Shown: positions 32,191 through 47,442, counted from the stretch's first letter. The stretch: 64,000 bases of DNA from Candidatus Thioglobus sp. (GCF_018644675.1 NZ_JABGQC010000001.1); one strand, 5' to 3'. Translations and numbers: made by a program. Notes: generated by a model from the letters alone, not told the origin.

Positions 32191-32204
32191 TTAACCTAGG
32201 TTAT
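32191..32204. promoter_or_regulatory. TAAC-type box TTAAC-CTAG-GTTAT
   Basis: Member of the wyAAC-N4-GTTrw family. It lies 6 bp after the FNR-type box. Confidence 0.45.
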
Positions 32205-32269
32205 TTTTTATTTAAACAGTGAATCATATAATGTGCTTGTCAAATTAATTTAATACCTGGGGGTTTGAA

Positions 32270-32995
32270 ATGATTTCTGCAAAAAATTACCACAATAAAT
32301 ACTATAAGTTTTTGGAAAAGACGTCTATATTTAAAGATATAGATACGAACGATCTGGTCGATTTTCTTGAGACGATTAAAATTAAGCAATATCGCAAAGG
32401 GGAGATGGTCACCTTTGATTCGCAAGAGCATGCCAAGTGTTATATTGTATTTGATGGCTTGTTCAAACTTACCAGAGTAGATGAGCGGGGTGATGAAATA
32501 GTCATTGCCCTGGTGGATAAAAAAGACATTGTGTCGCCAATGCATTATTCTAAGCATTATGACATTTGTGCAGAATTCGTTAAAAATACCACTTTGATTT
32601 ATTTTAATAAAGATGAAATTGAGCGATTCACAGAGAAAAGCCATCAATTCTCTACCAACATCATTACTTATTTGGCAGGCAATGTGCAGAAATTGATGGT
32701 TAATGCCGAGGTGTTGCAATTGAAATCTGCCAAGGAGAAAGTGGGCTGGTATTTGGTGCACAGCAAAATTAACAACACATTTAGATTGCCTTATTCAAAA
32801 AGCCTGATTGCCTCTTATTTGGGGATAAAGCCCGAGTCTTTTTCAAGAGCGTTAATTTTATTAAAAGAAGAGGGTATTAGCCTTGCCAACAAGACTATTA
32901 ATCTTGAAAGTGGTGATGAGCTGTGTAAATATTGCGACAAAGTGACGGGATCAAGTTGCCGCTCTTTTGAGTCTGAAGGCTGTGCACACGCTTAG
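32270..32995 (+). CDS. Crp/Fnr-family regulator with a C-terminal Cys cluster
   Basis: 241 aa. cNMP-like beta-barrel and an HTH with the FNR-type recognition motif E-SFSR (PESFSRAL). C-terminal CKYCDKVTGSSCRSFESEGC. No N-terminal Cys cluster. Confidence 0.85.
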   Translation: MISAKNYHNKYYKFLEKTSIFKDIDTNDLVDFLETIKIKQYRKGEMVTFDSQEHAKCYIVFDGLFKLTRVDERGDEIVIALVDKKDIVSPMHYSKHYDICAEFVKNTTLIYFNKDEIERFTEKSHQFSTNIITYLAGNVQKLMVNAEVLQLKSAKEKVGWYLVHSKINNTFRLPYSKSLIASYLGIKPESFSRALILLKEEGISLANKTINLESGDELCKYCDKVTGSSCRSFESEGCAHA

Positions 32996-32996
32996 T

Positions 32997-33476
32997 TTAA
33001 TTCGTTTTTCCGGCTTTAGCCGCTCTGGCTAACACAGCTTGCTTTTTGTCAATATATTCAACAATTTTACTTGCATGCTCGAGTGTTGGTTTTAGGGCTA
33101 AAGCCTGCTGCGCCATTGCTTTGGATGCTTCGTAAAATCCAAGATGCAGATAGGCAACAGACATAGATGTAAAGACCTTTGGATCTGTTGGCTCTAATAG
33201 CGCCGCCTCTTGATAATAACCGATTGCCTCCTGGTTTTTGTTTTGTCCAATATATAAATTGGCTAATTCTACATAAGCTTGCTTACTGGGAGAATTTGCA
33301 ATTATATTTTTGAGCTTTTGCTCAGACTCTTTGAATTTATTATCTTGCATTATTTGACCTACCTGTTGCAAAATTTTGCTTGAATCTGGTAATTTTGCCA
33401 GGGCAGGGTAGTTTAAAGCAGTGATACAAAATAGTAGCAATGTGATTAGTTTTTTTGATTTCATTTTCTTATCCAT
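32997..33476 (-). CDS. Secreted TPR-repeat protein
   Basis: 159 aa. Signal peptide followed by TPR-like repeats (AYVELANLYIGQNKNQEAIGYYQEA..., FTSMSVAYLHLGFYEASKAMAQQAL). Confidence 0.7.
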   Translation of the reverse strand: MDKKMKSKKLITLLLFCITALNYPALAKLPDSSKILQQVGQIMQDNKFKESEQKLKNIIANSPSKQAYVELANLYIGQNKNQEAIGYYQEAALLEPTDPKVFTSMSVAYLHLGFYEASKAMAQQALALKPTLEHASKIVEYIDKKQAVLARAAKAGKTN

Positions 33477-33488
33477 ATAAAAAATAGT

Positions 33489-33526
33489 AAAAAAAATACC
33501 CCTGTCAAGTTGCCTTGTCAGGGGTA
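33489..33526 (-). terminator. Rho-independent terminator between the hao-like gene and the TPR gene
   Basis: On the minus strand, TACCCCTGACAAG / CTTGACAGGGGTA stem with one mismatch, followed by a T8-9 run. Confidence 0.65.
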
Positions 33527-33552
33527 TTTAAGTTAAAACTTATGAGGCTTTG

Positions 33553-45868: not shown

Positions 45869-45898
45869 TTACTATATTATTATATGATAATATAGTAA
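45869..45898. repeat. 12-bp perfect inverted repeat TTACTATATTAT-N6-ATAATATAGTAA
   Basis: Read directly. It lies between the FNR box and the RBS of the fnr-like gene. Confidence 0.5.
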
Positions 45899-45922
45899 TA
45901 TTGAAAATTTGAGGAGAAAAGC

Positions 45923-46660
45923 ATGTCTTGTGGGGGTAGTGATAAAAATAAAGTAAACTGCATGGAATGTGGCATACGAAAGGACTCGCTGTTTAAAGAT
46001 TTGGATGATGAAGAGATCGTGCTAGCAGAGTCACACATTGATTTACAAAGGCAGTGTAAGCCAGGTGAGTATGTTATCAGTGAGCAGCATCAGGCAAAAT
46101 CAAGCTACATTCTTGCTTCAGGCTGTGTAATTTTAGGCACTTATTTGGAAGATGGCTCTCGGCAAATATTCCAATTGGCCTTGCCTGGTGATGTAATCGG
46201 CTTTGGTGTTAATAAAGACAATGGGTATTTTGCACAAGCCATTTCCGATGTAAAAGTGTGTGTTATGAGTAACACCTCCTTGGATAATTTGGTAAAAAAC
46301 CACAGTGCTGTTGCTGTGCGTCTGATTAAAAACCTTGCTAAAAGCAATTCTTCTTACCAGCAATATTTGTTAAACCTAGGTCGTAAAGATGCTAGACAAG
46401 CGCTAGCCTATCTAATAATGGATGTGACAGGGCGGCTTAAGAGGCAAGTTCCCGGGTGTTCACTTGATCATTCAAAGGCTTGTTTTTTTCCACTAAACCA
46501 AGAGGCGATGGCTGATACTTTAGGCATTACAAAGGTGCATGTTTCTCGTGTGATATCTCAATTCAAAAAAGAAGGCTTGATTGAGTGTAGTCATAAAAAA
46601 CTAAAAGTGTTAAATCAAGAAAAACTTGGTGAAATAGGTAACTACGCCGCTAGTATTTAA
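45923..46660 (+). CDS. fnr: FNR-like Crp/Fnr-family regulator with an N-terminal Cys cluster
   Basis: 245 aa with Cys3, Cys13-x2-Cys16 and a central Cys in VKVCVMS (C122-like position). The HTH reads TKVHVSRVI, so the position equivalent to E. coli FNR Glu209 is Val. Confidence 0.8.
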   Translation: MSCGGSDKNKVNCMECGIRKDSLFKDLDDEEIVLAESHIDLQRQCKPGEYVISEQHQAKSSYILASGCVILGTYLEDGSRQIFQLALPGDVIGFGVNKDNGYFAQAISDVKVCVMSNTSLDNLVKNHSAVAVRLIKNLAKSNSSYQQYLLNLGRKDARQALAYLIMDVTGRLKRQVPGCSLDHSKACFFPLNQEAMADTLGITKVHVSRVISQFKKEGLIECSHKKLKVLNQEKLGEIGNYAASI

Positions 46661-47157
46661 TTTATTTCTTTATTGTTTTTAAAGTTTTTTTCTGCCCATA
46701 TTTTTCCTGATTTATCCCACCAGGTAGATTGCCCGTCTAGTTGGTTGTTTTTGTAATGGTAGCGCTTCATTTTTTTACCATTGGAAAAAAACCAAGTTTT
46801 TGGTCCGTTTAAGGCGCCATATTGATAGCTTATCTCAATTTTCTTGTGACCATTTTTTCGCCAAAAAGTGCTAACTCCGTGCTCAACGCCGTTGTCGAAG
46901 TTGGCTATAAAATCTTTGTTGCCATTAGGTAGGTAGAATATTGATTGCCCTTGTTCTTTGCCGTCTTTGTAGTTAGACTTTCTAATAATTTGCCCATTTT
47001 TGTGTTTACTGATTACTTTCCCGGTGAACACCTTCGAGCTGCCTTTTTTATAAATTGTGCCATTAATACTGATGGTATCACTTGCGTCCAAAGTGGCATC
47101 TGAACAGGAGGCTGTAAAAAATAGTAACAGGCAAGCAATGACAAGGTTTTTAATCAT
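46657..47157 (-). CDS. MORN-repeat (YwqK-like) lipoprotein
   Basis: Lipobox LFFTASC. Repeated Y..G...G....F..NG motifs. Confidence 0.6.
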   Translation of the reverse strand: MIKNLVIACLLLFFTASCSDATLDASDTISINGTIYKKGSSKVFTGKVISKHKNGQIIRKSNYKDGKEQGQSIFYLPNGNKDFIANFDNGVEHGVSTFWRKNGHKKIEISYQYGALNGPKTWFFSNGKKMKRYHYKNNQLDGQSTWWDKSGKIWAEKNFKNNKEIN

Positions 47158-47159
47158 TA

Positions 47160-47339
47160 CTAGACTTTATTTTCAGCGATAGACTTAGACTCTCCTGTCT
47201 TTACTTCTTCTTTCATTGATTTTTTAAAGCCTTTAATGGTGCTACCTAAATCGGTGCCAATATTTTTTAGACGTTTTCCGCCAAAAAGTAATAACACAAT
47301 TGCTAAAATAATAACGAGTTCAAATGGTCCAGGCATCAT
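47160..47339 (-). CDS. tatA: Twin-arginine translocase TatA/TatE-family protein
   Basis: 59 aa, below the ORF-track cut-off. The reverse complement reads [45 protein letters not shown]..., i.e. the TatA helix-hinge-amphipathic helix signature. Confidence 0.8.
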
Positions 47340-47428
47340 GCTTTATCCTTATAATTATGATTAAATTTACCTAATTTTAACAAGTTAAAATACTACTGTG
47401 TCGCCTATTTGACAAGGCTTTGCTATTG

Positions 47429-47442
47429 TTAACATAGGTTAA
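47429..47442. promoter_or_regulatory. Perfect TAAC-type box TTAAC-ATAG-GTTAA in the tatA/tpm divergent region
   Basis: Read directly. Confidence 0.45.

Follow-up and report, generated by a model that had tools for sequence, protein, structure and literature searches.

Bacteria of the SUP05/Thioglobus group, together with their relatives among mussel and clam symbionts, are widely regarded as major agents of nitrate-coupled sulfide oxidation in oxygen-minimum zones and at vents, and nothing in the literature searched explains how these bacteria turn on sulfide oxidation or nitrate reduction. In the class II layout of FNR- and CRP-dependent promoters the activator dimer is positioned at -41.5, where it touches RNA polymerase directly and stands in for the -35 element. 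In FNR it is Glu209 (Glu181 of CRP) that recognises the third base pair, G:C, of the half-site TTGAT; the CRP mutants E181V, E181L and E181K described by Ebright reportedly prefer A:T over G:C at this base pair, and in NtcA the corresponding residue is Val. A survey of the superfamily found that the residue at CRP position 181 co-varies with the half-site base (Rodionov et al., 2005, PMC1274295): NssR (Q181) reads TTAACnnnnGTTAA and HcpR2 (P181) reads GTAACnnnnGTTAC, so that non-Glu 181 goes with A (PMC1274295), while the dehalobox of CprK, TTAAT-N4-ATTAA, is located at -41.5 (PMC7062800). Here, we analysed 64,000 nucleotides of Candidatus Thioglobus sp. (GCF_018644675.1, NZ_JABGQC010000001.1), referred to below at its full length as the window, in which the original prediction had noticed nine copies of a palindrome, wyAAC-N4-GTTrw with a spacer nearly always nTAn, hereafter the B box as distinct from the canonical TTGAC-N4-GTCAA, or A box. 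Literature searches for this motif string or for SUP05 regulators returned only the work of Rodionov et al. (2005) on NssR (PMC1274295). The B boxes, found upstream of nap, hao, fcc and several other genes, probably delineate an altered-specificity FNR-type regulon of Thioglobaceae, a novel form of an already known kind, which resembles FNR class II sites in layout and has essentially the half-site of NssR; its candidate regulator, Crp2, belongs to a large unnamed subfamily and is encoded in the window along with its paralogue Crp1.

All nine sequences listed in the original prediction are present in the window at the positions given there. The loose pattern WYAAYN4RTTRW (IUPAC notation) has 19 matches against 12.6 expected, a number reached in 5 of 100 shuffles, and was rejected as evidence on its own, not being significantly enriched; the core with one mismatch occurs 39 times against 38.9 expected. 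The exact core AACnTAnGTT has 6 copies where 1.54 would be expected; 5 of them fall into the 6.8% of the window which is intergenic (not covered by long open reading frames). A binomial comparison of intergenic and coding DNA with two mismatches allowed was discarded as well, as it merely recovers AT-rich palindromes, and dinucleotide shuffles were used in its place. The signal is to be located in the exact core, its intergenic placement and its conservation. For the latter, seven Thioglobaceae loci were compared, three (L001-L003) obtained from a NapA scan and four (L083 and L086-L088) from homologues of Crp2; the first three belong to an uncultured SUP05 bacterium, Ca. Thioglobus perditus and Ca. 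Ruthturnera, respectively, with NapA identity of 85-91%. For the window and these seven loci, taken in place of the whole genome, 22 core matches were counted in the 19 kb of intergenic DNA and 3 in the 173 kb of coding DNA, an about 67-fold higher intergenic density; nap loci from other lineages of comparable GC content have 1 match in 39 kb of intergenic DNA.

A 20-bp weight matrix, built from 25 sites of other genomes and none from the window, places eight of the listed sites ahead of every other match in the window, with 10.1-22.1 bits and each in intergenic DNA; the ninth-best match, of 8.8 bits, falls in coding DNA. In this matrix A at position 3 has a frequency of 0.97, and the central T and A of 0.91 each, in agreement with what had been read by eye. 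The palindrome family itself stands, with an outer consensus corrected to ATAAC in place of TTAAC, and extends to about 20 bp, the extended consensus being AAAATAAC-mTAk-GTTATTTT, i.e. AAAATAAC-(A/C)TA(T/G)-GTTATTTT. The eight sites, given without strand, are as follows (offsets of -10 hexamers are counted from the box centre).

32191..32204: B box of the crp1 promoter, TTAACCTAGGTTAT; 21.1 bits; TATAAT 32227-32232 at 29.5 bp.
35090..35103: B box ACAACTTAGGTTAT, in class II position for hao (leftward); 16.5 bits.
35129..35142: middle box ATAACATAGGTCAA, a hybrid of one B half and one canonical half; 10.1 bits.
35168..35181: B box TTAACCTATATTAT of the distal rightward promoter; 18.7 bits; TAGAAT 35203-35208 at 28.5 bp.
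35301..35314: B box ACAATCTATGTTGT of the proximal napD promoter; 19.4 bits; TATAAT 35337-35342 at 29.5 bp.
37355..37368: B box of an internal napABF-soxYZ promoter, ACAACCTATGTTAA, between napH and napA; 22.1 bits; TAAAGT at 29.5 bp.
43674..43687: B box ATAACCTATGTTAT, common to the divergent DUF302 and fccA genes; 22.0 bits.
47429..47442: B box TTAACATAGGTTAA between tatA and tpm; 15.0 bits; TAAAAT 47463-47468 (+) at 27.5 bp.

The 5-4-5 geometry of FNR/DNR-type dimers, ascribed to these palindromes from the outset, is borne out and accompanied by class II spacing to the -10 element. Spacing was evaluated over 39 site-direction pairs from nine promoter groups, the pairs being orthologous and hence not independent. 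In 23 of 39 pairs a TATAAT-like hexamer with at least 5 of 6 matches begins at exactly 29.5 bp, counted from the centre of the box, as compared with 0-3 pairs at other offsets between 18.5 and 41.5 bp; for TAnnnT the respective values are 32 of 39 and 0-9. TATAAT occupies this position at napD in 6/6 genomes and at DUF302 in 7/7 (displaced by 1 bp in one of them), and fccA has TAGAAT or TATATT there. Since the -10 hexamer lies at 29.5 bp, the box centre would fall at about -41.5 if the start is 7 nt past the hexamer. By this layout the B box is very probably a class II Crp/Fnr activator site. One might instead regard the sites as repressor operators: a palindrome at -48 to -35 would overlap the -35 element, and some promoters are repressed by FNR-family proteins. 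The fixed -41.5 geometry combined with good -10 hexamers and no conserved -35 hexamers is nevertheless the signature of class II activation, and nap operons of other lineages are preceded by canonical FNR boxes, which act there as activator sites, so repression appears highly improbable.

Several sites deserve separate consideration. The box at 43674, correctly assigned to fccA by the original prediction, has TAGAAT (43710-43715, +) on one side and TATAAT (reverse complement of 43646-43651, -) on the other, both at 29.5 bp; it therefore serves the promoters of both fccA and DUF302, the second target having been missed. No -10 element comparable to that of tpm is present toward tatA from the 47429 box, which more likely belongs to the tpm promoter than to tatA; a box occupies the counterpart position in L088, L002 and L001. 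The hao gene has TAAGAT (reverse complement of 35062-35067) starting 29.5 bp from the centre of the 35090 box. This box and those at 35129 and 35168 are spaced 39 bp apart, the outer two being in class II position to leftward hao and to the rightward promoter, and a triple array with the same spacing and a hybrid middle box (TTGACATAGGTTAA, 69-82) recurs in L088, where the counterpart of the 35168 box is at position 107. In both genomes the middle box (35129-35142; L088 69-82) combines a TAAC half with a TTGAC/GTCAA half, and judging from this composition it might be a meeting point of both regulators or a heterodimer site. Loose sorting of "hybrid" half-site combinations was tried and dropped, its output being mostly noise. 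Positions 35214-35275 (+), lying between the distal promoter with its B box (inferred start near 35215) and the proximal one of napD, encode a hairpin with a 12-bp stem followed by a U-rich tract. Its minimum free energy is -19 kcal/mol (z -2.35), its counterpart in L088 (146-210) carries compensatory stem changes, and neither this segment nor the window as a whole gave an Rfam match; it could be a small RNA of about 60 nt or a leader attenuator.

Phylogenetic footprinting in the seven related loci found the boxes kept upstream of orthologous nap, fcc and hao genes. B boxes occupy orthologous places at napD, the napH-napA gap, fccA, DUF302, hao, crp1 and tpm, with the sequence between box and -10 element diverged. 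Box and -10 element are retained together at napD in 6/6 genomes, in the napH-napA gap in 6/7, at fccA and DUF302 in 7/7 each, at hao in 4/4, and also at tpm; the box of the napH-napA gap is kept in L001, L002, L003, L087 and L088. The hao gene has another position and orientation in L001, L002 and L083, yet its B box is retained. In these relatives the hao-TPR pair lies between DUF302 and fccA (hao at 16469-17929 in L001, 15240-16787 in L002 and 5652-7112 in L083), and in the window it is inverted and placed between crp1 and napD (33553-35013); the hao B box either moved along with the pair or was re-created at the new place. Chance formation of AT-rich palindromes in AT-rich intergenic DNA might be invoked for the whole family, all the more that the loose pattern is only marginally enriched and many AT-rich palindromes seem intergenically enriched at two mismatches. 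Both the matrix derived from other genomes and the spacing analysis refute such an origin: conservation at orthologous promoters despite diverged flanks and the exact distance to the -10 element leave it a negligible probability, and the B motif is almost certainly a real, conserved cis-element. Outside the clade, an exact TTGAY-N4-RTCAA is present within 1.5 kb upstream of napA in 27 of 66 nap loci of other lineages and the B core in 0 of 66, and the seven Thioglobaceae loci have the reverse pattern, with the B core instead of the canonical box. Because the pattern is reversed in the clade, the B box of Thioglobaceae fills the place which FNR boxes take elsewhere.

The host, with GC content of 36-43% in the window, is a sulfur-oxidising gammaproteobacterium of the SUP05/Thioglobus type. 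Gene calls confirmed the names proposed earlier (nap, hao-like, fccAB, tatA, tpm and two Crp/Fnr genes), with the order napD-G-H-A-B-F followed by soxYZ, and only two Crp/Fnr paralogues, sharing 22% identity, are encoded in the window. The genes under discussion are listed below.

32270..32995, + strand: crp1, DNR-like Crp/Fnr regulator (helix PESFSR of the E--SR pattern, four conserved C-terminal Cys).
33553..35013, - strand: hao-like octahaem cytochrome c, putative regulon member (8 CxxCH motifs, signal peptide).
35371..37348, + strand: napD-napG-napH (gene calls).
37451..41885, + strand: napA-napB-napF-soxY-soxZ (gene calls).
43084..43554, - strand: DUF302 gene, divergent from fccA, conserved putative regulon member.
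43826..45727, + strand: fccA (dihaem cytochrome c) and fccB (flavocytochrome c sulfide dehydrogenase, FCSD, flavoprotein).
45923..46660, + strand: crp2, FNR-like regulator (Cys3/13/16/113, recognition helix TKVHVSR).
47500..48150, + strand: tpm (thiopurine S-methyltransferase family).

FCSD Pfam domains are present on the fcc orthologues. The DUF302 protein has a hydrophobic N-terminal stretch which may be a signal peptide, and its gene is the one most consistently tied to B boxes. In the SUP05 CRYPA assembly (L001) napH appears to be divided between two overlapping open reading frames (9038-9899), through either a frameshift or an assembly error. In several metatranscriptomes from seawater the fccAB-crp2 segment (42800-46800) reaches word depths in the hundreds to thousands, consistent with expression in situ, with the reservation that contig depth is a poor expression measure and that metatranscriptome runs can contain DNA.

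Crp2 belongs to the Crp/Fnr superfamily, having an N-terminal beta-barrel of cNMP-binding type (PF00027 at 44.6 bits) and a C-terminal HTH_Crp_2 domain (PF13545 at 48.5 bits, both above cut-offs), and its AlphaFold2 model (predicted local distance difference test score of 84) is closest to holo-FNR, with template modelling scores of 0.80-0.85. In the HMMER alignment to A. fischeri FNR, V205, S208 and R209 of Crp2 fall on E209, S212 and R213, i.e. T-K-V-H-V-S-R is aligned on T-V-E-T-I-S-R with Glu209 changed to Val and both Ser212 and Arg213 kept, and C13, C16 and C113 align to FNR C20, C23 and C122. The best curated matches of Crp2 are all FnrL, FixK and Fnr, and against the NCBIfam model of the Fnr subfamily it reaches 81 bits, the cut-off being 228. 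Lacking Glu209, falling below the Fnr cut-off and associated with A at box position 3, Crp2 is, judged from these characters, not FNR proper. The [V/I]-H-x-[S/N]-R helix is conserved among its homologues: in a library of 1.84 billion proteins, reduced to representatives of 50%-identity clusters, at least 105 of the best 150 matches carry it and about 10 carry Glu. None of ten sampled members of this subfamily scored above the cut-off of a curated NCBIfam model. Replacement of Glu209 by Val fits the A:T pair at position 3 of TAAC, and with crp2 linked to fccAB and nap in 8/8 Thioglobaceae loci, Crp2 is the probable reader of the B boxes. The anticipated dedicated regulator of FNR/DNR geometry, coupling nap, the HAO-like cytochrome and fccAB, is in this way supported by enrichment, conservation and class II spacing.

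Distant members of the Crp2 family (27-42% identity) adjoin or directly follow B boxes in further loci. In the symbiont of Bathymodiolus thermophilus (L081) the Yip1-ccoNOQP genes are preceded by ACAACATAAGTTAT and a TATAAT at 29.5 bp from it, and a representative of Arenicellales (L090) has CTAACTTAAGTTAA before neighbouring fccAB; in L129, L157 and L164 a perfect TTAAC-nTAn-GTTAA lies upstream of the regulator's own gene; in L140 and L150, where the genes run regulator-DUF302-(second paralogue)-napD, every gap contains a box. The L140 arrangement (739-3341) comprises two tandem [V/I]-H regulators around DUF302, followed by napD, with a box of TTAAC-nTAn-GTTAA type in every gap. DUF302 genes adjoin B boxes beside [V/I]-H regulators in L110, L140 and L150, and the distant loci overall contain 17 boxes in 58 kb of intergenic versus 8 in 337 kb of coding DNA.

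Shuffling of intergenic DNA with dinucleotides preserved disclosed a second family, absent from the original prediction: the most over-represented intergenic 5-4-5 palindrome is TTGAC-N4-GTCAA, with 5 sites (at most 1 mismatch) versus 0.06 expected, located at mog/narK, narG, crp1 and crp2 (again without strand).

6328..6379: two canonical-type boxes at mog/narK, 6328 TTGACCTGGGTTAA and 6366 TTGATCCAGGTCAA.
9463..9476: A box TTGACCTTGGTCAA upstream of narG, outside the B family; perfect palindrome.
32171..32184: A box of the crp1 promoter, TTGACCAAAATCAA, at about -61.5; it precedes the B box of that promoter by 20 bp.
45852..45865: A box TTGACCTTGGTCAA in the crp2 promoter; perfect palindrome; TAATAT at 29.5 bp.

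The site at 6328, introduced at first as a "hybrid" member of the B family, belongs here instead: it is one mismatch from TTGAC-N4-GTCAA, lies 38 bp from the like box at 6366, and is not among the 30 best B-matrix matches listed. An A box stands about 70 bp upstream of the crp2 start codon in 8/8 genomes, with TAATAT at 29.5 bp in 6/8. The crp1 promoter of L002 has both the orthologous B box and an upstream canonical box in the same A-then-B order (6939 and 6958), the A box in either genome being 19-20 bp upstream of the -41.5 B box.

Crp1 has the helix K-P-E-S-F-S-R of the E--SR pattern, and its best solved relatives are a Crp-family protein of Ruegeria and P. aeruginosa DNR (42.7 bits to the latter). 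The family is widespread in Thioglobus and Ruthia, with PESFSR invariant and four C-terminal Cys invariant or nearly so (residues 219-238, LCxYCD-x7-C-x7-C); N-terminal Cys are absent. Bacillus Fnr carries a C-terminal Fe-S site, which the Cys pattern of Crp1 recalls, and these Cys point to an Fe-S site rather than to the haem of DNR. In T. autotrophicus, a Ruthia-like contig and the SUP05 assembly of L001 crp1 is found beside hemN, and in 2/3 of them near ccoNOQP; exact A boxes stand at the hemN/crp1, cco, nrdD, U32-peptidase and narK promoters of these crp1 loci, and no B boxes were detected in any of the three. An open reading frame of 252 aa upstream of napD in L003, inspected as a relative of Crp1, proved not related. 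Having the E--SR helix together with canonical TTGAY-N4-RTCAA boxes at its own and neighbouring promoters, Crp1 most likely reads the A boxes and may be the general anaerobic regulator of the clade.

The inverse assignment, with B boxes read by Crp1 and canonical boxes, including the one of its own promoter, by Crp2, is what simple autoregulation would predict from the B box at crp1 and the canonical box at crp2, and crp1 does adjoin the nap/hao array, both in the window and in L002. We hold it to be quite improbable: the E--SR helix reads TTGAT-type boxes in FNR and DNR, Crp1 orthologues elsewhere are situated amid canonical boxes without B boxes, L001 and L003 keep all nap and fcc B boxes without crp1 in the locus, and B boxes follow the [V/I]-H family where the locus has no Crp1-like gene. 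The economical assignment would pair B boxes with Crp2 and A boxes with Crp1. The reader could also be another dimeric regulator, of Crp/Fnr type or not, encoded outside the window, the linkage of crp2 being coincidental. Only 64 kb of the genome were scanned, NssR-type proteins do read TTAAC-N4-GTTAA, and the relative represented by L092 has a third Crp-family gene near mog/narK. On the other hand, B boxes repeatedly adjoin [V/I]-H genes in several unrelated lineages, in some cases immediately upstream of the gene for the regulator; the genomes of SUP05 are of small size (1.51 Mb in T. autotrophicus), and an NssR-like protein was seen in no locus, which makes an outside reader unlikely.

Certain observations weigh against the pairing of Crp2 with class II B boxes as described. 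The crp2 promoter in SUP05 contains a canonical box and not a B box, and because of this it is gene linkage, together with the distant homologues, that ties the regulator to the motif. Many distant [V/I]-H homologues have no recognisable box in the short flanks at hand, and the gene of L092 indicates that a third paralogue is possible. The FNR ligand Cys29 is unaligned in Crp2, with Ser in its place, which leaves the sensor chemistry uncertain; Cys3, conserved in the SUP05 clade, may substitute for it. Finally, metatranscriptome contigs of high depth run through the promoters, so that 5' ends are not readable from them.

From the observed sites, their enrichment and conservation, the -10 spacing and the residue differences we infer a circuit in which the protein-box pairing, activation rather than repression, the signals and the transcription starts would be as follows. 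A dimeric Crp/Fnr activator would bind B palindromes about 41.5 bp upstream of the inferred starts of napDGH (distal and proximal promoters), napABF-soxYZ, the HAO-like gene, fccAB, DUF302, tpm and crp1. By this spacing transcription is predicted to start near 32239 for crp1, 35055 (minus strand) for hao, 35215 and 35349 for nap, 37403 for napA, 43722 for fccA, 43639 (minus strand) for DUF302 and 47475 for tpm. Since crp2 carries an A box and crp1 both an A and a B box, a two-tier cascade is suggested: Crp1 would activate crp2 along with nar and narK (in relatives also hemN, cco and nrdD), and Crp2 would activate nap, hao, fccAB, DUF302 and tpm and feed back on crp1, the two regulators presumably using their boxes without cross-reaction. 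With its FNR fold and FNR-like Cys, Crp2 would be a putative Fe-S sensor of O2 and/or NO; for each regulator the predicted signal (Fe-S, O2 and/or NO) is deduced solely from Cys patterns, and we give sensing through an Fe-S cluster (O2/NO) an even chance. Extended beyond Thioglobaceae, the same observations can be read as follows, a proposal about equally prone to be right or wrong: a large unnamed FNR-like subfamily, distributed over several proteobacterial lineages, would read TTAAC-nTAn-GTTAA in place of the FNR box over fccAB, nap, DUF302 and sometimes the cbb3 oxidase, and in SUP05 would form the lower tier under Crp1, an FNR-analogue with C-terminal Cys as in Bacillus Fnr, the Glu-to-Val change insulating both regulons.

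One box type would join nap, fccAB, DUF302 and the HAO-like octahaem enzyme, itself a candidate for the reduction of nitrite or hydroxylamine, into a concrete regulon with a candidate regulator, and DUF302 becomes a candidate gene in sulfide or nitrate respiration. A single change in the recognition helix (Glu to Val at CRP position 181) could be enough to yield a second, non-interfering FNR-type regulon in one cell, and the B box may be used for predicting regulon members in metagenomes.

As for the arrangement of the circuit, a close parallel is the ANR->DNR pair of Pseudomonas, where, as proposed here, two Crp/Fnr paralogues act in series over nitrogen-oxide respiration and one gene carries the box of the other. 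ANR and DNR use one common box type, whereas here each tier has distinct boxes; furthermore, the apparent master, Crp1, is DNR-like with C-terminal Cys, and the FNR-like protein would be placed downstream. With the FNR class II promoters of E. coli and A. fischeri (TTGAT-N4-ATCAA at -41.5) the B boxes share the 5-4-5 geometry and the inferred centre at -41.5, and Crp2 shares with FNR the fold, the N-terminal CxxC and a central Cys. They differ in A instead of G at position 3, in the conserved central TA and in an outer base which is A or T rather than T, and the protein has Val against E209 of FNR and lacks the aligned C29. The dehaloboxes of CprK/RdhK in Desulfitobacterium (TTAAT-N4-ATTAA at -41.5) likewise combine A at position 3 with class II position (PMC7062800, PMC3638464), and the sequence and structural kinship of CprK to Crp2 is detectable; unlike Crp2, CprK accommodates a chlorophenol effector in its beta-barrel, is without the Fe-S Cys set, and regulates rdh targets in Firmicutes. 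HcpR2 of Clostridia, Bacteroides and Thermotogales (GTAAC-N4-GTTAC) also has the TAAC core and Glu181 replaced (PMC1274295), but differs in Pro at position 181, G at the outer position and an hcp regulon. A further comparison is with NssR of Campylobacter jejuni (Cj0466), which reads TTAAC-N4-GTTAA over a nitrosative-stress regulon (PMC1274295): the B half-site is essentially the same, the B consensus (A/T)TAAC-nTAn-GTTA(T/A) is an NssR-type box, and NssR is likewise a Crp/Fnr activator with a non-Glu residue at CRP position 181 (PMC1274295). Crp2 is set apart from it by the specificity residues (K204/V205 against A180/Q181 of NssR), by the FNR-like Cys set against a single Cys, and by a predicted regulon of nap, hao, fcc and DUF302 in place of globins.

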